Origin: Syntrophaceae bacterium UBA2208
GTDB lineage: Bacteria; Desulfobacterota; BSN033; UBA1163
Assembly (NCBI GenBank): GCA_002327885.1
Contig: DCUS01000125.1
Location: 1 to 51,706 of the forward strand
DNA length: 51,706 nucleotides
Direction: 5' to 3'
Shown here: positions 16,343 to 51,706 of the stretch, in pieces
Numbering within the stretch: position 1 is the stretch's first letter
Layout: the number at the start of each line of letters is the position of its first letter
Translations under genes and position numbers: made by a program
The notes under the pieces: model-generated
What the model saw: the letters and a program-made list of their open reading frames with translations, nothing else
Databases searched by the model: none
Told to the model about the DNA's origin: nothing

Positions 16343-16927
16343 CTAAGCCAATTTCTTTTTCAGCCGATAGATTGTTTCAAAAGAATTAAATAGATCAAGA
16401 TATTGCTCAAGGTAAGGGGTAAGCAAAAAATTCTTTCTCGCTGTCTCCTTTGCCTTCTTACCCATTCGGTGCCGGAGTTTTTCATTCTTGATCAATTTGA
16501 TTGTTTTTTCTGATGCCTTCTTTATGGACGAGACTAAAAAACCATTTTCCCCGTTACTGATCTGGCATCGAATTCCACCTACGTTTCCTCCAATCACGGG
16601 GGTCCCTTTCCACATGGCTTCAGCAACTGTCACACCAAAGCCTTCACGGATCGATTTTTGAAGCACAACCGTTGCTTTTCTTTGTAAGGCATTCACCAGC
16701 GCAGTGTCCCGGTGGCTTAGTATGATGATCCGTTCATCGCGGCATTCCAGAAGAGATTCATAAACCTCTGCTCCTTCCGGATCGTCTGTCGCCATATTCC
16801 CAAGCAGAACAAGGGTGCAGTCCACCTCCTTTCTTGCAAGTGTGAATGCTTATATGACCCCTTTCGGGTCTTTCCATCGGTCGAAACGAGAAATTTGCAC
16901 GACCAGAGGGAGATCTGTTGATGGATC
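16343..16927 (-). pseudogene. treT: Trehalose glycosyltransferring synthase (TreT-type GT4) remnant: C-terminal ~190 codons with an in-frame TAA
   Basis: Translating beyond the track ORF gives [51 protein letters not shown]...LQKSIREGFGVTVAEAMWKGTPVIGGNVGGI. This follows the TreT motif order. TAA is at 16850-16852, and the N-terminal GT-B half is absent. Confidence 0.6.
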
Positions 16928-17274
16928 GGGCGCCACTCGTCTCCTTTCAGAGGATCTCTCTTGTCAATCGTCTCTCCAAAGACATTGAACACCCTTCCCA
17001 GCACCCCCTTTCCAACGGGCACCTTTAGAAAATGACCTGTATCGATAACCGCGGATCCCAGAGCCAACCCTTGTGTGGGTGTAAGGGCAATGCCGCGGAC
17101 CGTACTGGAATCGAGATGGTTGATCACTTCGATGATAATGTTTTCGTCACCGCCCGCCCTCAGAACGTTATAGAGAGGCGGAAGACGTTCGGAAAACCTT
17201 ACGTCGACCACACTGCTTCGGACCGAAATGACCGTTCCCCGGTTGGATGGATCAGAAGTTTTTTGACTGTCCAT
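16921..17274 (-). pseudogene. atpD: F1-type ATP synthase beta subunit remnant: N-terminal ~120 codons only
   Basis: GTVISVRSSVVDVRFSE..LPPLYNVL...IIIEVINHLDSSTVRGIALTPTQGLALGSAVIDTGHFLKVPVGKGVLGRVFNVFGETID...WRPIH matches the beta-barrel N-domain of AtpD. Homology stops before the P-loop, at the junction with the treT remnant. Confidence 0.65.
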
Positions 17275-17444
17275 CGATTCATTTCCTTTTTTTGTTCTTG
17301 ATTCGCGCAATACACGGCTTCACTTCGATGATACTATTCGGATCTAAAGAGATGGAAAGCATCTCTGATCGGGAGATACAGATCGCAATCCCCATCCATA
17401 TCAGTAACGTCAAAGGCCGTGACCCTCCATCCCTTTGCCATCCT

Positions 17445-32914: not shown

Positions 32915-33190
32915 TTAATGGATTTCCCATTCTCCATAACGCATACCGTTGCGCAATCTTCCAAATTCGATCTTTTTATTCTTTTCCAGGGCATCCACCA
33001 GTATCTCCGCTTCCAGGAGCGAACACCCCATCTTGTCGTAAAGAAAGCCCCTGAATTCGGTCTTGCCCCGAAGATATGTTTCCCTGAACGGAGAGGCAAA
33101 CCGTTTCAATAGGAGACGGCAAGCCCTGTTGAACTTCCCGACATCCACTCGGGTCTGCGACTCCGCTCTTTTTCGCTTTTTCATGATCAA
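32915..33190 (-). CDS. Hypothetical 91-aa basic protein
   Basis: The ORF start overlaps the stop of the upstream gene (ATGA at 33187-33190), which suggests translational coupling. No family recognised. Confidence 0.4.
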   Translation of the reverse strand: MIMKKRKRAESQTRVDVGKFNRACRLLLKRFASPFRETYLRGKTEFRGFLYDKMGCSLLEAEILVDALEKNKKIEFGRLRNGMRYGEWEIH

Positions 33191-33801
33191 TAACGAAATA
33201 CAGCAGCCAGAGGCGCCTCATCCGGCATCTCCTCCGGCTTCATGGCATACACTGTCACTCCGTTTAAAATCGTGTGAACAGCCGCAAAATCGAGCAGGTC
33301 TTCGTCCCCGAATTCCGGTTCCGCGTGAATATGAATTGTACACTTATCCGGGTCGAAAAAGCCCCATTGCTGGACACCTACAGTCACCCATAGGATATCG
33401 ATTCTTCCCTCACAAGCCGCTGGAACAATTTTCTTCAGGTCCTTTGAAGCCCGCGCACTGCCCGCTAATTGCTTATATTTGGCCATGGCCTCTTCTTGAG
33501 CTTTGAGAAATTGAGGTTCGACAATCCCCCATGCCTGCCCGTGTAATTCTTCCGCCTTCAAGCTCTCTGGGTTTCCCGTAATCCCCTGTTCCAACAAATG
33601 GGGATAGCTGTTGGCTTCCCTGTAAATCGGAAAGAGGTAATCGACTCTGCAGGAAACAAGAAAGGGACGTCCATAACCAAACTGTTTCAGCGCTTCGGTA
33701 CCGGTGGCTTTTCCTGTCAGTTGTTTCACTTCCTCTACATCCACTTCTTTCTGAAATCGATTTTCCAAATATTTCTTAACTTCGGCTAACTCAAAATTCA
33801 T
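33187..33801 (-). CDS. Half-length protein whose C-terminal ~150 aa resemble bacterial eRF1-like (baeRF / host-attachment-type) proteins
   Basis: The C-terminal pattern is ...DYLFPIYREANSYPHLLEQGITGNPESLKAEELHGQAWGIVEPQF...ASKDLKKIVPAACEGRIDILWV...GDEDLLDFAAVHTILNGVTVYAMKPEEMPDEAPLAAVFRY. I recognise this from memory as the family's C-terminal half. The N-terminal ~55 aa are unrelated to that family. Confidence 0.4.
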   Translation of the reverse strand: MNFELAEVKKYLENRFQKEVDVEEVKQLTGKATGTEALKQFGYGRPFLVSCRVDYLFPIYREANSYPHLLEQGITGNPESLKAEELHGQAWGIVEPQFLKAQEEAMAKYKQLAGSARASKDLKKIVPAACEGRIDILWVTVGVQQWGFFDPDKCTIHIHAEPEFGDEDLLDFAAVHTILNGVTVYAMKPEEMPDEAPLAAVFRY

Positions 33802-44782: not shown

Positions 44783-44850
44783 AATGAACTCCTTTCCGGA
44801 ACTTCCCAAAAAATTTCTCCGCGTTTGCTGAACGACTCCAATGTGTGATA

Positions 44851-44866
44851 ATCAAAAGACATGCCA
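44851..44866 (-). promoter_or_regulatory. Sigma-54-type -24/-12 promoter candidate
   Basis: The minus strand reads TGGCAT-gtctt-TTGAT, with exact GG-N10 spacing and A instead of the consensus C at -12. It lies about 70 nt upstream of ATG 44782. An identical 16-mer is at 46899-46914. Confidence 0.5.
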
Positions 44867-45000
44867 ACGCTTTCCGATGATACATAAAATGATGTTTTGA
44901 TTTTATTTCGATAACTTGGGAGGCAGTGATCAAGACGGATGAAAAAACATTGGCAGGGATTAACCGTGGAAGCATGCCACACCTGGGGCACACTTCCCCG
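44851..45000. repeat. Copy 1 of a ~150-bp duplicated regulatory cassette (promoter + AT-rich spacer + palindromic upstream site)
   Basis: It aligns along its length with 46899-47047. Shared blocks are ATCAAAAGACATGCCAAC, TTTTGATTYTATTTCRRTAACTTRGGARGCAGT and CGTGGAAGyrTGCCACACyTGGGGCACrCTTCC. The last block is an imperfect palindrome, GGAAGyrTGCC-N8-GGCAyrCTTCC. Confidence 0.65.
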
Positions 45001-46836: not shown

Positions 46837-46898
46837 ATGATGCTCCTCCTTCCTTGAATTTATTTTTGCTGAGTAGTTGCTTCCCTTGAAAGTTATTA

Positions 46899-46914
46899 AT
46901 CAAAAGACATGCCA
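46899..46914 (-). promoter_or_regulatory. Sigma-54-type -24/-12 promoter candidate
   Basis: The minus strand reads TGGCAT-gtctt-TTGAT, identical to 44851-44866. It lies about 60 nt upstream of the cytochrome P460-like ATG 46836. Confidence 0.5.
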
Positions 46915-47047
46915 ACACACCGGGGTATAATATCAAAAGGTCTTTTGATTCTATTTCAGTAACTTAGGAAGCAGTCAGCAAGATGGCTAAGGAGTATTGA
47001 TAGAACTGGGTCGTGGAAGTGTGCCACACTTGGGGCACGCTTCCACG
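46899..47047. repeat. Copy 2 of the ~150-bp duplicated regulatory cassette
   Basis: See 44851-45000. In this copy the palindrome GGAAGTGTGCC-N8-GGCACGCTTCC pairs perfectly apart from one G:T. Confidence 0.65.
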
Positions 47048-47051
47048 ACTT

Positions 47052-47258
47052 CTACTTGGGAATGATGCGATAGATTCGGTCATCTCCCTCACTGGGACTC
47101 CCTCTTCCGTCCCTATTGCTTGTCAGAAAATAAAGGGCTCCGTCCGGGCCTTCAACGACGTCCCGGAGTCTTCCGTATTTTCCCTCTTCGTCGCCGCTCC
47201 CAAACCAGCGCTCGATCCTTGTCACCCGGTAACCACTGGACACCCTATGGCGGAACAC
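47052..47258 (-). pseudogene. PQQ-dependent soluble sugar (glucose/sorbosone) dehydrogenase remnant: C-terminal ~45 codons
   Basis: ...RLRDVVEGPDGALYFLTSNRDGRGSPSEGDDRIYRIIPK* is the typical last beta-propeller blade and C-terminus of YliI/Asd-type enzymes. Its upstream part is replaced by the 3' end of the MBL/rhodanese gene (overlap 47222-47258). Confidence 0.5.
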
Positions 47259-48607
47259 GCCGCCATGGAACCCAGGCTATCCTCCACGACATCGAAGCCA
47301 TGATTCTTCAATATGGAAGCCGCAATGATTGCCCTCCGGCCACTTCCACAGAAGGTAGTGATCCGTTGATTTCTCGGGATCTGGTCCAAACGGTCCGGCA
47401 ATTCGCCCACATAGATATGGTGGGCATTGGGCAAGTGTCCTTTCTGAAATTCCTCGATCGTTCGCACGTCGAGTAAAGTGAAACGCTCTTTTTCCTGAAT
47501 CCGCTGCGTCAATTCTTGAGCATGAATCGCAGGAATTCTGTCATATTTGTGTCCGCCGACCTCCCACGCATAAAGTCCTTCATTGAGAAAGCAAGTCACC
47601 TTGTCATATCCCAGACGGAGAAGAAACCGCACGGCCGTTTCCACATCCGAATATTTGTGGACCACTAATCCCAGAGGTCTATCATAAGGGAGAAACCAAC
47701 CTGCAAATGCAGGAATCATATCCAACGGGAGAGCCAAGCTACCGGGAATAAAGGCCCCGGCAATTGCCTCCGGGCTCCGAGCGTCAAGAGCCAGCATACC
47801 CTTTTTCATCGCATCGGAAAACTCGGCAGGGCCCACAGGGGGCGGTTTAGAAATCTCGTAAACGGGAGGCGCGTTGCCCTCCTGATTGTAATGCTCCATC
47901 TGTTTGAAATAGGGTGGCTTGTAGTGGTGCTCATGAACCTTGTGTTTGATGAATTGATCTCGCTCCGTCAGTTGGAGAAGCGGGTTGTGTTTGCGTTCGA
48001 ATCCCAGAGTGGAGAACTCCCTGGCAGCCATACCACTTCCGCATACCGACCCTGCTCCGTGAGCCGGAAAGAGGAGCACGTGATCCCCGAGGGGCAGGAG
48101 TTTTCTAAAGAGACTGTCATATAGCAGCCCTGCCACCTCCTCGGGACAATCCGGAAAGAAATCCGTGCGTCCTACATCTCCTATGAAGAGCGTGTCGCCG
48201 GTAAAAACAGCAATCGGCTCGTTTCCAAAGTTCTTATCGGTCAGAGTCAAAGAAATGCTTTCATAAGTATGACCAGGCGTTTCGAGCACGGTCACCACAA
48301 GGTCTTCGAACTTAAAAATATTGCCTTCCCGAACAGAAGTCCCATAATGAAAATCGAGCGCTTCTCCATGATAGATCGCTGCGCCGGTGCGTCGGGCAAG
48401 GTCTATCGAACCGATCACATAGTCCTCGTTACGGTGCGTCTCGAAGATGTGGGTGATGACTGCCCCGTTACGTTGAGCGATATCAACATAGATCTCGCAG
48501 TCTCTTCGTGGATCCACCACTGCGCACTCCTTTCCGGATCCGAAAATGTAGGACATATGGGCCAAGCCTTCCGAACGTATCGTCTCAAAAAATATCTTTT
48601 CCGCCAT
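47222..48607 (-). CDS. Metallo-beta-lactamase-fold protein fused to two rhodanese-like domains (persulfide dioxygenase/rhodanese fusion architecture)
   Basis: MBL motifs are TPGHTYES, GDTLFIGDVGRTDF and FPAHGAGSVCG. Motif 1 reads THRNEDY instead of HxHxDH. The C-terminal rhodanese active-site loop is TFCGSGRRA. Confidence 0.8.
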   Translation of the reverse strand: MAEKIFFETIRSEGLAHMSYIFGSGKECAVVDPRRDCEIYVDIAQRNGAVITHIFETHRNEDYVIGSIDLARRTGAAIYHGEALDFHYGTSVREGNIFKFEDLVVTVLETPGHTYESISLTLTDKNFGNEPIAVFTGDTLFIGDVGRTDFFPDCPEEVAGLLYDSLFRKLLPLGDHVLLFPAHGAGSVCGSGMAAREFSTLGFERKHNPLLQLTERDQFIKHKVHEHHYKPPYFKQMEHYNQEGNAPPVYEISKPPPVGPAEFSDAMKKGMLALDARSPEAIAGAFIPGSLALPLDMIPAFAGWFLPYDRPLGLVVHKYSDVETAVRFLLRLGYDKVTCFLNEGLYAWEVGGHKYDRIPAIHAQELTQRIQEKERFTLLDVRTIEEFQKGHLPNAHHIYVGELPDRLDQIPRNQRITTFCGSGRRAIIAASILKNHGFDVVEDSLGSMAACSAIGCPVVTG

Positions 48608-48681
48608 GGAACTCCTCCTCTTAATTGTATGTGAGTCGGAACCTTATCTTTTGCAGCCCAGTCTAACAGTCTAAGAATGAA

Positions 48682-48697
48682 TCCAAAAAATGTGCCA
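48682..48697 (-). promoter_or_regulatory. Sigma-54-type -24/-12 promoter candidate for the MBL/rhodanese gene
   Basis: The minus strand reads TGGCAC-atttt-TTGGA with correct spacing, about 75 nt upstream of ATG 48607. The -12 element is non-consensus (G for C). Confidence 0.4.
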
Positions 48698-48750
48698 AGA
48701 GAAATCAGATTTTTCTAGAATATCATTGTGTCTCCTTTATTATTAAGTAG

Positions 48751-48879
48751 TGTCTGTCCATAAATAGCCCTTTCCGTCATGCCGGACTTGATCCGGCATC
48801 CAGAAAGTCTTGAAAGTACTGGATTCCGGCTTTCACCGGAATGACGATTCTGGTTGAGTGGGCAATTTATAAACAGACA
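48751..48879. mobile_element. MITE/REP-like palindromic element (~130 bp)
   Basis: The outer inverted repeats are TGTCTGTCCATAAAT (48751-48765) and ATTTATAAACAGACA (48865-48879). The inner inverted pair is CGTCATGCCGGACTTGATCCGGCATCCAG (48775-48803) and CTGGATTCCGGCTTTCACCGGAATGACG (48819-48846). Each inner unit is itself a small hairpin. There is no coding capacity. Confidence 0.45.
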
Positions 48880-49102
48880 TTAAATAGTTATGGTTTGTCC
48901 ATTTCGAGGAGATAGATCCCGGGCAAAGAAATATGGGAAGGCCAAAGTAACCCAAACAAAATAATCGGGGCAAGTTTCTACGGTTGGGGCAGATCTACGG
49001 GGCACATTGCCACGAATTGGTTCCAATAGCTAACTCAATGTCTCCATTTGTTCTCTATTAAGTCATCAAATTAATTTGAGAAATTCGGGTTCTACCTTAT
49101 CT

Positions 49103-49118
49103 TGGCACATTTATTGAT
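49103..49118 (+). promoter_or_regulatory. Sigma-54-type -24/-12 promoter candidate for the NOX-like/Tpx genes
   Basis: TGGCAC-attta-TTGAT, 100 nt upstream of ATG 49218. Three GGGGCA motifs (48967, 48986, 48999) lie about 100-135 nt further upstream. Confidence 0.5.
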
Positions 49119-49217
49119 TTACATCTTTGGGTGCCACCCTTGTGATACGTGCATTCATTCGTGCGCATTGAACCGAGCACACAGTTAAATCGCTCAATGG
49201 ATTGAGAGGAGGGCAGA

Positions 49218-50537
49218 ATGTGGCCAGGATTGTCGCGAATCATTCTTCATCTGTTAGCGTTTTGCGCTCCCTTTATCGTAATCATCTTTTTCCACTTCCA
49301 TTCGGACCACGGTCTTCTCTCTGAGATAGCAAAAAACTTTGCCCTTTTAGGGTTTGTGGTCCTCATCCTTCAACCCGTTTTGGGTGGACGGTTCAAGTGG
49401 ATCGAACGGCCTTTCGGTCTCGACATCCTCTTCCGGTACCATAAATACATGGGCGTTTTCGCAGCTTGCCTGCTCTTGATCCACCCTCTCTTGCTTGCAG
49501 CCGGAGGAGGCGGCTTGCACCTGCTTTTCTCCCTCAATGTCCCCTGGTATATCTGGCTGGGAAAGATCGCTTTGTTTCTCCTTCTTGTGAACATCGGCCT
49601 CTCCCTTTACCAGTCAAGCCTGCATCTGAAATTTGAGAAATGGCGTCTTGGTCATGATGCATTAGCAGTTCTGATCATCGTCCTTGCATTCACCCACAGT
49701 TGGTTTGCAGGGCATGATCTGAAGATTCTCCCTATGAAATTTCTATGGGTGATCGCTTTGGGAGCTGCCGCCGTAACGTTCGTTTACCACCGGATCATCA
49801 GGCCCTATCGACTTGGCCGTCATAAATATTCCGTTGCCGATGTTCAGGCCGAGACAAAGAATGTATGGATCGTCAATCTCTCTCCTCCCGAAGGAGAAAA
49901 ACCGTACGATTTCCTGCCAGGCCAATTTCATTTTCTCACTTTTCATCGGGATCGGAACCTGCCCGAAGAAGAGCACCACTGGACCATCTCATCCAGTCCA
50001 ACCCAAAAAGGCTACATAAGTTCCACCATCAAGGAATTGGGCGATTTCACCTCGACCATCGGACAGACCAGACCGGGAGACACGGCAACTGTCCACGGTC
50101 CCTTCGGTCGTTTCTCTTACCTCCTCCATCCCGAAGAGAAAGACCTTGTCTTTATCAGCGGAGGAATTGGGATCACTCCTTTGATGAGCATGCTTCGGCA
50201 TATGCGAGACACACAAAGTACCCTTCCGGTGTTGCTTCTGTATGCCAGCGAGGATGAGGAGGAAGTTATTTTTCGACAAGAACTCTTCGAGATCGAAGCA
50301 GGGGGATTTCCACGCCTGAAGGTGGTTCTCGTCCTGAGTAAGCCCAGAAAGGATTGGAGCGGTGAAAAAGGCTATATTAATCGCAAAATAATTGAAAAAT
50401 ATACCGAGGGACGTATAAAGGGAAAGGGCTTCTATATCTGTGGTCCTCCTGGACTGATTGATCTCACTCTTCGAATCCTCGGAGAACTCGGCGCTCCCGA
50501 TGAGCGTATTCACATAGAGATCTTTTCTTTCCTTTAA
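49218..50537 (+). CDS. NOX/FRE-like membrane flavocytochrome: ferric-reductase-type 6-TM haem domain fused to FNR-like FAD/NAD(P)H-binding domain
   Basis: Two His...His pairs, each separated by 13 residues, sit in predicted helices (HKYMGVFAACLLLIH and HDALAVLIIVLAFTH). FAD motifs are PGQFHFLTF and HHWTISSSP. The NAD(P)H motif is ISGGIGITPLMSML, and the C-terminus has FYICGPPGL. Confidence 0.8.
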   Translation: MWPGLSRIILHLLAFCAPFIVIIFFHFHSDHGLLSEIAKNFALLGFVVLILQPVLGGRFKWIERPFGLDILFRYHKYMGVFAACLLLIHPLLLAAGGGGLHLLFSLNVPWYIWLGKIALFLLLVNIGLSLYQSSLHLKFEKWRLGHDALAVLIIVLAFTHSWFAGHDLKILPMKFLWVIALGAAAVTFVYHRIIRPYRLGRHKYSVADVQAETKNVWIVNLSPPEGEKPYDFLPGQFHFLTFHRDRNLPEEEHHWTISSSPTQKGYISSTIKELGDFTSTIGQTRPGDTATVHGPFGRFSYLLHPEEKDLVFISGGIGITPLMSMLRHMRDTQSTLPVLLLYASEDEEEVIFRQELFEIEAGGFPRLKVVLVLSKPRKDWSGEKGYINRKIIEKYTEGRIKGKGFYICGPPGLIDLTLRILGELGAPDERIHIEIFSFL

Positions 50538-50572
50538 ACGATAAACGAGCATTCCAACGAAGGAGAATCACT

Positions 50573-50668
50573 ATGCGAAAGAAAAAACTGAATCAAGCAA
50601 CGAGAGTGATCATAGCCATTCTTATCGTTTCTGCGGTCCTTCTGGCCTGCATCCGTATCTATCTTTAG
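50573..50668 (+). CDS. 31-aa single-TM peptide, not in the ORF track
   Basis: GAAGGAG RBS, 7 nt, then ATG. The product is MRKKKLNQATRVIIAILIVSAVLLACIRIYL*. It lies between the NOX-like gene and tpx. Confidence 0.35.
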   Translation: MRKKKLNQATRVIIAILIVSAVLLACIRIYL

Positions 50669-50678
50669 ATACGGATGC
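50649..50678 (+). other. Perfect 12-bp-stem hairpin overlapping the stop of the 31-aa ORF
   Basis: GCATCCGTATCT-atcttt-AGATACGGATGC. No U-tract follows, so it is not a canonical intrinsic terminator. Confidence 0.5.
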
Positions 50679-50797
50679 AGGTGGATACCACAACAACGTT
50701 GCAGTCCACCCGCTGGGAAGATGATGAAGCCAACATAAGAGGGAACAAGGGGTTCAACATCTTGGGAAGACAATACGAAAAAAAAGAGGAGGAAAGC

Positions 50798-51415
50798 ATG
50801 AAGACCAAAATCTGGGTCGTTTTGGGCCTAGCGGCTTTATTGGGAATGGGATGCGTTACAACAAAAAAGATGGAGATGAGTTCAGAGTCCGTTAAGCCAG
50901 GAACCGAGGTCACTTTCAAGGGAACCCCCCACAAGCTACTCGGAGATCCTTTGACAGTAGGAGCTTCCTTGCCCTCAGTCAAGTTGACAGACGCCAGGAC
51001 GATGAAGGACGTCGATCTTTCAGCCGAGCGCGGCTCTGTACTCTTTTTGAGTACCGTCGTCTCCATCGATACTGCGGTGTGAGAAGAACAGACGCACCGC
51101 CTCGGTGAGGCGGTAGATAAACTTCCCAAAGGAATCAAATGGATCACCATCAGCCGGGATACCCCTTTTGCTCAGAGACGGTTTGCTGATGAAGCCGATC
51201 TCGAGGATATCTGGTTTCTGTCTGATTATAAGACGGGGGCGTTTGGACGAGCCACAGGTCTTCTGGTCGATCAACTCATGTTTCTGGCAAGGTCCATCAT
51301 CATCGTCGATCAGCTGGGAAAAGTCCGCTACGTCCAGGTCGTGCCCGAGCTCACCAAACTGCCGGATATGGAAAAAGCTTTTGAGAAGGCACGCCAGCTT
51401 TCAAAAGAGAACTAA
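50798..51415 (+). CDS. tpx: Exported thiol peroxidase (Tpx family) with TGA (51080-51082) at the peroxidatic Cys position: candidate selenoprotein
   Basis: ATG 50798 sits behind AGAGGAGGAAAG, followed by a signal peptide, MKTKIWVVLGLAALLGMGC. The frame reads ...VLFLSTVVSIDTAV-TGA-EEQTHRLGE...ISRDTPFAQRRFADEADL...ARSIIIVDQLGKVRYVQVVPELTKLPDMEKA. It is collinear with E. coli Tpx (PSIDTGVCAA...LPFAQSRFCGAEG...). The 333 nt after the TGA stay open in frame, and a hairpin lies downstream. Confidence 0.7.
51096..51114 (+). promoter_or_regulatory. SECIS-like stem-loop 13 nt downstream of the tpx in-frame TGA
   Basis: ACCGCCU-CGGUG-AGGCGGU is a perfect 7-bp stem whose apical loop contains GGU, at the distance expected for bacterial SECIS elements. 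Confidence 0.5.
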
Positions 51416-51706
51416 TGCAAACGCATTTATTTCTTTGACATCAAGCCCCTTCAGCCTTCCCTTTCCCCGCTGAGGCTGTGTCATAATCGCAACCGGAGGG
51501 GAGAGGGATGGGGTGAGGGGCGATTCCGTTGAGTGTAATAAGATTTAATGCGTTTTTATCAGTCAGTTGCGGTCGGGAGATTTAGAGGGAGGAGAATGAA
51601 GCCGGAGTCATAGGTCTGCAAAGTTAGCGGCTACCACCAATGATGTTATCGATGTATTAATAGGAGCGCATTATATTATTTAACTATTTTATAGGGCCTG
51701 ATCCCA

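Follow-up and report, generated by a model that had tools for sequence, protein, structure and literature searches.

A NOX-like flavocytochrome and a predicted exported selenocysteine thiol peroxidase in one apparent Syntrophaceae operon: probably two separately evolving units

Introduction

Does a membrane flavocytochrome deliver electrons to the exported peroxidase encoded just downstream of it? The question is raised by the 51,706-nucleotide (nt) contig DCUS01000125.1 of Syntrophaceae bacterium UBA2208 (assembly GCA_002327885.1; "the window" hereafter, i.e., the whole stretch of DNA analyzed), near the end of which three genes follow one another on the forward strand: a NOX-like flavocytochrome in which a ferric reductase domain is fused to an FNR-type dehydrogenase (FRD-FNR), a 31-amino-acid (aa) membrane peptide, and a thiol peroxidase (Tpx) with selenocysteine (Sec) in its active site. 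A first-pass annotation had described the flavocytochrome, the small membrane peptide and the Tpx from the letters of this DNA; all three are present, and its sequence-level statements about them were verified. Against its main proposal, a conserved system in which the Tpx receives its electrons from the flavocytochrome, speak ~124 FRD-FNR loci, six Tpx loci, a sister species (L144) and a near-identical strain (L135). Overall, we consider it rather probable that two separately evolving units meet here within one lineage-specific sigma-54-type stress operon: the flavocytochrome and the 31-aa subunit would export NAD(P)H electrons to a periplasmic acceptor, and the Sec-Tpx would be an independent member of a gene trio directed against reactive oxygen species (ROS), drawing on a thiol, a thioredoxin-like protein or sulfide as its reductant.

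Results and Discussion

FRD-FNR and Tpx do not travel together

We compared ~124 FRD-FNR loci (80 from species-representative genomes, 43 from metagenomes and a few from look-ups of individual matches) with six Tpx-family neighborhoods outside the window's species (four Cys-type loci and two Sec-type lineages). A tblastn search placed Tpx at 1 of the ~124 FRD-FNR loci (L027), 5.5 kb from the FRD-FNR gene, and FRD-FNR was found at none of the six Tpx neighborhoods (0/6); the surroundings of the four Cys-type lipoprotein Tpx genes are unrelated and mostly monocistronic. No family recurred more than twice next to FRD-FNR when flanking open reading frames (ORFs) were compared all-against-all and with Pfam (148 neighbors, 26 loci), and peroxidase and ROS-defense genes were not enriched near FRD-FNR outside this clade. 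FRD-FNR and Tpx hence do not form a conserved donor/enzyme pair of the MsrPQ kind, and the check for synteny with tpx in related genomes that had been suggested at the outset returned no conserved co-occurrence.

These counts bear on the model put forward in the first-pass annotation, in which the flavocytochrome with its peptide feeds electrons directly to the exported Sec-Tpx in the style of MsrQ-MsrP. The arrangement invites such a model: all three genes run the same way downstream of a single sigma-54-like promoter, an exported Tpx without a resolving or any other Cys would need an external reductant, and the short outer loops predicted for the flavocytochrome (topology taken from the helix boundaries of an AlphaFold2, AF2, model) are similar to the SpNOX loops, with which the outer heme stays accessible (PMC5676040). 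However, these features must be set against the single FRD-FNR locus with a Tpx at a distance, the six Tpx neighborhoods lacking FRD-FNR, a sister species that has FRD-FNR and the peptide but no tpx, and an adjacency that stems from a recent deletion of the superoxide reductase gene sor (see below). To our knowledge, there is also no precedent for a heme reducing the selenenic or sulfenic acid of a peroxiredoxin. Direct supply of the Tpx thus appears very improbable, and a specific NOX-to-selenoperoxidase system is not supported.

A NOX-like flavocytochrome with a small conserved partner

The first gene (49218..50537, forward strand, 439 aa) had been read as a ferric-reductase-domain/FNR fusion, with which Pfam, invariant histidines and the AF2 fold all agree. 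Pfam recognizes Ferric_reduct (42.9 bits, cutoff 28), FAD_binding_6 and FAD_binding_8 (both above their cutoffs) and NAD_binding_1 (72 bits), with NAD_binding_6 falling slightly under its cutoff (21.1 vs. 22.2 bits). Across an alignment of 23 family sequences, the candidate heme ligands H75/H89 and H146/H160, the FAD motif HHWTISS and the NAD(P)H motif GGIGITP are invariant, and the predicted structure has six transmembrane (TM) helices in which the two His pairs, on helices 3 and 5, would hold two b-hemes. The AF2 model (pLDDT 77.6, pTM 0.76) consists of these six helices followed by a two-lobed dehydrogenase, and its best Foldseek match is SpNOX (8qt6, E-value 7e-23, TM-score 0.76/0.83), with the NOX5 and DUOX1 structures matched as well. 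SpNOX is also the only full-length solved relative that we found by sequence (full-length profile). The TM domain alone had no match in the PDB by sequence or profile search, so that this relative is reached only with the full-length profile or a fold search. These results support the earlier view that the NOX-like fold is suited to outward electron transfer, as do, independently, the periplasmic heme c partners of relatives described below.

The second gene (50573..50668, forward strand), preceded by a GGAG ribosome-binding site (RBS), encodes a 31-aa single-pass membrane protein, MRKKKLNQATRVIIAILIVSAVLLACIRIYL, which we predict to be a dedicated small subunit of the flavocytochrome. Its layout (MR-x3-L-x-+-x-T, ~17 hydrophobic residues and a conserved Arg, Arg28, replaced by Gln in a distant clade) recurs in ORFs found at the FRD-FNR stop, the detection window for the ORF start being -30 to +100 nt from that stop. 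Such a partner ORF was present at 81 of 118 testable loci vs. 6% of 2,480 random positions, a difference on which a chance ORF was rejected as the explanation, and it typically begins 10–30 nt past the FRD-FNR stop. At an FRD-FNR identity of 45% or more, our own tally gives 58 of 65 loci with the partner. Partner-bearing loci come from Desulfobacterota, Chloroflexota, Planctomycetota, Acidobacteriota, Gemmatimonadota, Verrucomicrobiota, Gammaproteobacteria and others; the small single-TM peptide noticed at first sight is thus real, and its counterparts are conserved in relatives. The curated families yielded no match other than a sub-threshold one to YkgR (14 bits), and our literature search found no small bacterial NOX subunit, nor any pairing of a NOX-like protein with Tpx, cytochrome c or NrfA.

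In 14 of the 81 loci the partner is extended by heme c domains, monoheme in 11 cases and pentaheme in three. At the 11 monoheme loci, its N-terminal helix runs into a ~90-aa domain with one CxxCH; the L006 partner is assigned to Pfam Cytochrom_C, and that of L004 has precomputed Cytochrom_C/Cytochrome_CBB3 matches. In three gammaproteobacterial metagenome-assembled genomes (MAGs), the partner, encoded directly after the FRD-FNR relative (L040 5866-7089; L064 7226-8458; L073 7110-8159), has its own anchor helix of the window-peptide type and continues into a pentaheme (five CxxCH) Cytochrom_C552 NrfA-like protein (E-value down to 1e-119). This protein scores under the NCBIfam NrfA cutoff (290 vs. 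595 bits), and Pfam searches of the neighboring ORFs found neither NrfH nor NrfBCD near it in L040, L064 or L073. The arrangement in these three MAGs may allow a NrfA-like enzyme to be fed from NAD(P)H.

Judging from its positively charged N-terminus, the partner helix would be oriented N-in/C-out, which would place the heme c domains in the periplasm, beside the outer b-heme. Given such outer heme c and NrfA-like domains in relatives, the flavocytochrome and its partner most likely export electrons to periplasmic heme or other acceptors.

Distant matches confined to the FAD/NAD part were also obtained in L075, L078, L080 and L084 (candidate-phyla-radiation MAGs), where the gene downstream starts like an ApbE flavin transferase (by eye). 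Such ApbE-like neighbors recall the flavinylation-associated extracytosolic electron-transfer systems (PMC8238504).

The conserved unit around Tpx is sor-tpx-sodC

Three public contigs encoding a flavocytochrome identical in protein sequence to that of the window (L135, L136 and L137) and a sister species at 87% nucleotide identity (L001/L144) allow the operon to be compared between close relatives. Contig L135 matches the window at 99.96% identity along 7.6 kb, except that ~485 additional bp separate its peptide gene from tpx (L135 7577-8061), the alignment resuming at window position 50783. This insert encodes sor, a 131-aa superoxide reductase of the Desulfoferrodoxin/neelaredoxin type. What remains in the window (50669..50797, forward strand) is the spacer that precedes sor in sister strains, with the deletion junction at ~50783-50793 in an RBS-like microhomology (the L135 match extends to 50793). 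Because sor lies between the two genes in a strain this similar, the adjacency of peptide and tpx is a recent deletion product.

Of these contigs, only L135 retains sor, the window, L136 and L137 all having the deletion. A Cu,Zn superoxide dismutase gene (sodC), probably encoding a lipoprotein (LLSTCS in its N-terminus, by eye), follows tpx in L135 and L137 and is lost in L136. In L001/L144 the promoter, FRD-FNR, the peptide and the spacer are kept and followed by sor and sodC, with no tpx (L144 6970-7245, between sor and sodC), and the operon lies in a chromosomal context that differs from the window's. At the position syntenic to the window, beside 2-oxoacid:ferredoxin oxidoreductase genes, L141-143 have sor-tpx(Sec)-sodC without FRD-FNR. 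In L138-140, tpx(Sec) is accompanied by sodC and a sor gene in inverted orientation, again with no FRD-FNR within 6 kb. These comparisons show that the conserved unit around Tpx is a sor-tpx-sodC trio.

Strains and sister species thus differ by the gain or loss of whole genes from this operon. Elsewhere in the window, two ~150-nt elements (44849-45000 and 46895-47064), 73% identical and with a palindromic core, flank a segment with an LTXXQ-family gene, and copies in L141 and L144 edge segments that differ between genomes. These elements may be of the repetitive extragenic palindromic (REP) or miniature inverted-repeat transposable element (MITE) type and may be involved in rearrangements.

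A shared sigma-54-like promoter

Promoters recognized by sigma-54 have the consensus TGGCAC-N5-TTGC, with GG at -24 and GC at -12. A motif of this kind, TGGCAC-ATTTA-TTGAT, lies ~100 nt upstream of the FRD-FNR start (49103..49118, forward strand), and a second and nearly identical one, TGGCACATTTTTTG (48684..48697, reverse strand), is found 77 nt upstream of a divergent MBL-rhodanese gene (47222-48607). TGGCAC-N5-TTG occurs twice in the window vs. 0.30 times expected, and both occurrences are in the divergent intergenic region 48608-49217, each facing its own gene. Since the -12 elements read TTGA or TTGG, without the consensus C, we grade the sigma-54 assignment as probable only. The motif upstream of FRD-FNR is conserved in L001/L144 and also precedes an FRD-FNR relative in L031 (5874-5887); L135, L136 and L141 have, within a few kb of it, a gene pair for a PAS-domain sensor protein and a sigma-54 activator of the NtrC type.

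The FRD-FNR promoter region of the window is moreover homologous, motif included (L141 3213-3226), to a region ~105 nt upstream of sor in L141-143. From this homology, FRD-FNR and the peptide gene appear to separate the sor leader from an ancestral sigma-54-like promoter, which would make co-transcription with tpx likely here. The early impression of one apparent operon behind a sigma-54-like promoter is thereby strengthened, the same promoter region preceding sor-tpx-sodC in a relative. We interpret the promoter sharing as a lineage-specific regulatory link to ROS defense that goes back to one evolutionary event, not as a recurrent association.

Alternatively, the genes could be mere neighbors with separate transcripts, the flavocytochrome being an unrelated reductase (e.g., for Fe(III)) and tpx being transcribed from its own 130-nt spacer. 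The length of the peptide-tpx gap and a hairpin at the peptide stop would be consistent with this, as would the monocistronic appearance of Tpx homologs elsewhere and the otherwise unrelated neighbors of the FRD-FNR family. However, the hairpin in question (50649..50678, forward strand), which indeed exists where it was first described and spans the peptide stop codon (largely kept in L001/L144, with one mismatch), has no T-run and was not called in a simple scan, which found no terminator between the peptide and tpx. The promoter homology also opposes separate transcripts: with the spacer being the former sor 5' leader and the ancestral promoter now standing before FRD-FNR, expression of sor, tpx and sodC probably requires read-through. 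Independent transcription of unrelated neighbors therefore seems unlikely to us. Further downstream, 30 nt past the tpx stop, a long G+C-rich hairpin (51445..51521, forward strand; -52.5 kcal/mol, z -4.25) folds better than all shuffled versions (0/200 fold as well) and is not followed by a T-run; it possibly marks a transcript end or acts as a stabilizer before sodC.

A shared operon could also point to periplasmic oxygen scavenging, in which the NOX-like protein would convert O2 to superoxide outside the membrane, SodC would dismutate it and the Sec-Tpx would remove the resulting peroxide, with Sor covering the cytoplasm. This scheme draws on the co-occurrence of FRD-FNR and the peptide with the superoxide-specific sor and sodC in one operon (in this species and L144), on the shared sigma-54-like promoter near the sensor/activator pair of L135, L136 and L141, and on the superoxide production of SpNOX in vitro (PMC5676040). 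However, only one genus-level clade shows this link to ROS genes, which probably goes back to a single insertion, whereas elsewhere the family pairs with heme c domains and not with ROS genes. FRD-FNR is, in addition, retained where sor (window) or sodC (L136) has been lost, and the Tpx would still be left without a reductant. We accordingly regard oxygen scavenging as a doubtful explanation of the locus.

A predicted exported selenocysteine thiol peroxidase

The third gene (50798..51415, forward strand) encodes a thiol peroxidase of the lipoprotein type whose peroxidatic residue is Sec and which lacks a resolving Cys. Pfam Redoxin and AhpC-TSA are matched far over their cutoffs, and the best NCBIfam match is NF001808, yet under its cutoff (112.6 vs. 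123 bits, with U written as C); a classification as Prx-SUH (NF045827) was rejected at 85 bits vs. a cutoff of 298. The frame is unbroken save for one TGA (51080..51082, forward strand) in the context SIDTAV-U-EEQ, which aligns with the peroxidatic Cys of Escherichia coli Tpx and of 15 homologs, and the same in-frame TGA is found in the DNA of L141 (84% identity) and L138 (74%), i.e., in three orthologous lineages in total. The protein matches ~2,100 database proteins; the best 120 matches listed are mostly ~208 aa long and 59–71% identical, with an ordinary Cys codon, and five shorter entries (94–127 aa), which match the N-terminal part at 70–94% identity, represent gene calls ending at the UGA.

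Starting 13 nt past the UGA, a hairpin resembling a selenocysteine insertion sequence (SECIS), ACCGCCUC-GGU-GAGGCGGU (51096..51114, forward strand), folds with -16.3 kcal/mol (z -2.2) and exposes GGU in its apical loop. It is kept in the three orthologs, with seven invariant pairs and a varying synonymous site in the loop, and three Cys-type homologs have no such hairpin at that place. Rfam searches gave nothing relevant and no SECIS match, either over the whole window at the gathering threshold or over 48600-51706 with E-values up to 5; the window has no tRNA gene, and no family of the Sec machinery appeared among its scanned ORFs. Peroxiredoxins that have Sec in a TxxU site form a recognized selenoprotein class (PMC13188914).

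The alignment with E. coli Tpx and the 15 homologs confirms both substitutions described at first, TGA for the peroxidatic Cys and Ala for the resolving one. RRFADEA aligns with SRFCGAE of E. coli, which shows that the resolving Cys is missing, its position being likewise occupied by Ala in 15/15 aligned lipoprotein homologs, and no further Cys is present in the mature protein. Cys-bearing homologs of ~208 aa with this Ala and the N-terminal extension described below are 60–67% identical to the window Tpx. The active site retains the T-A-V-U context and the Arg of RRF, and the Pro of PxxxTxxC (within residues 86–95 of the window Tpx) is replaced by Val, at a position that varies across this exported subfamily and is often Val, Thr or Ala.

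As for export, the N-terminus combines MKTK, a hydrophobic stretch and LLGMG-C, with Gly as residue -3, and Cys19 (codon at 50852..50854, forward strand) is the predicted lipidation site. An N-terminal extension of ~35 aa ending in a lipobox-type Cys is shared by the window Tpx and 14/15 aligned homologs (the remaining one is N-terminally shorter), and every full-length homolog has a lipobox, such as LSAC, LVLGC, FGC or LMGC, at the place of Cys19. The predicted export thus agrees with a trait common to the homologs, and the Tpx is probably an exported, lipidated one-Sec enzyme that joins a known large exported Tpx family.

Proposed mechanism

In the reading that we favor, NAD(P)H would reduce the FAD of the flavocytochrome on the cytoplasmic side, and electrons would traverse the membrane via its two b-hemes. 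The small subunit would sit with its N-terminus inside and its C-terminus outside, where in relatives the outer end is a monoheme cytochrome c or a NrfA-like domain, and the pair would pass electrons to periplasmic heme or other acceptors, the window species having the anchor only. SpNOX reduces cytochrome c directly, and non-O2 periplasmic acceptors have been proposed for bacterial NOX-like proteins (Hajjar et al., 2017, PMC5676040), an idea to which the natural fusions between partner and heme c lend genomic support.

The Sec-Tpx, on the other side, would serve with Sor and SodC in a defense against superoxide and peroxide, and the sor deletion would have brought its gene next to the flavocytochrome unit in this strain. 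Its reductant is more likely to be a periplasmic thiol/thioredoxin-like route or sulfide than the flavocytochrome. The thiol relay ScsB to TlpA to PprX (PMC3322552) is the only documented precedent for the reduction of an envelope peroxiredoxin; Pfam detected no DsbD, CcdA or TlpA among the 38 window ORFs scanned.

Several points weigh against this picture. The Tpx neighborhoods compared beyond the species number only six, four of Cys-type and two of Sec-type, and the absence of FRD-FNR from L138-L143 holds for the locus, so that the gene may lie elsewhere in those genomes. The partner detector is heuristic, missing true cases (L011, L050) and probably admitting a few false ones (L030), the heme c extension is limited to 14/81 partners, and the putative physical binding of peptide and flavocytochrome is suggested by synteny. 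In two related species, moreover, the operon of FRD-FNR and the peptide gene also contains ROS-defense genes and lies behind the ancestral sor promoter, so that a functional tie to oxygen or ROS defense is possible in this lineage. A more far-reaching scheme would combine both sides: two-subunit NAD(P)H electron exporters, whose single-helix subunit docks or tethers heme acceptors (cytochrome c, or a NrfA-like protein without NrfH), would here have been captured into a sigma-54 oxygen-stress operon and would power periplasmic detoxification, including that by the Sec-Tpx, directly or via a carrier. We consider this combination unlikely.

The physiological acceptor of bacterial NOX-like proteins is a question raised by the discoverers of SpNOX (PMC5676040), to which a conserved small partner, in places fused to a cytochrome c or NrfA-like enzyme, offers a concrete and testable answer. 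The same fusions hint that NAD(P)H could supply periplasmic heme enzymes by a route bypassing quinol dehydrogenases. Finally, the region bears witness to exported one-Cys/one-Sec lipoprotein Tpx enzymes as a widespread family and shows a modular sor-tpx-sodC operon in which whole genes are gained or lost between strains.

Other features of the window

The divergent gene behind the twin promoter motif (47222-48607, reverse strand) encodes a persulfide-dioxygenase-like protein in which a metallo-beta-lactamase (MBL) fold is fused to rhodanese domains, and it is not found in the syntenic region of L141. At 16346-17310 (reverse strand), two short, overlapping and fragment-like ORFs, one a 160-aa C-terminal piece of a group-1 glycosyltransferase and the other of 197 aa with only the N-terminal barrel of ATP synthase alpha/beta, may be pseudogenes. 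A 204-aa bacterial eRF1-like (baeRF) protein is encoded amid central-metabolism genes at 33190-33801 (reverse strand).

Comparison with known systems

The closest characterized counterparts of the flavocytochrome are SpNOX (PDB 8qq7, 8qt6, 8qta) and the long-form FRD proteins of Zhang et al. (2013), which have the same six-helix, four-His, two-heme domain, FAD and NAD(P)H domains, and short outer loops. However, identity to SpNOX is only ~19%, and the FAD/NAD domains of the window protein, unlike those of SpNOX, score best with Pfam models of the FNR/cytochrome b5 reductase type. A conserved small membrane partner, sometimes bearing heme c, distinguishes the window's family as well; we found none reported for SpNOX or the long forms.

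The msrP and msrQ genes form a conserved pair. In the MsrQ-MsrP system (with Fre, in E. coli) an FRD-type membrane heme protein likewise hands cytoplasmic reducing power to a dedicated periplasmic enzyme, MsrP being the specific periplasmic partner of MsrQ (PMC12525009; PMC5676040). MsrQ, however, has no fused dehydrogenase, and MsrP is a molybdoenzyme. The pairing of FRD-FNR with Tpx, unlike MsrPQ, is not conserved, the conserved partner here being a single-helix protein.

Small membrane accessory subunits are also known from other heme oxidoreductases, e.g., p22phox of NOX2, which has several helices, and CydX of cytochrome bd. The window peptide may play a comparable role, by analogy and with no sequence relation to either. 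In NrfH-NrfA and NrfBCD-NrfA, the partner belongs to the same pentaheme Cytochrom_C552 family as in L040, L064 and L073, i.e., in relatives and not in the window, but the NrfA-like protein of these relatives, unlike in the NrfH and NrfBCD systems, carries its own N-terminal anchor.

With E. coli Tpx, an atypical 2-Cys enzyme, the window Tpx has in common the fold and the SIDT-x-V-C/U and FAQ-x-RF active-site contexts; it differs in being exported as a probable lipoprotein, in its peroxidatic Sec, in the Ala that replaces the resolving Cys (Cys95), and in the lost Pro of PxxxTxxC. Sec in place of the peroxidatic Cys is found as well in the Sec peroxiredoxins (TxxU; PrxU of Eubacterium acidaminophilum), whereas the window protein, unlike PrxU and Prx-SUH, belongs to an exported 1-Cys lipoprotein subfamily of Tpx. 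The ScsB/DsbD-TlpA-PprX system of Caulobacter (PMC3322552), finally, likewise supplies an exported peroxiredoxin that needs transmembrane reducing power, but PprX is of the PrxQ type, unlike the Tpx of the window, and is served by a thiol-disulfide relay.

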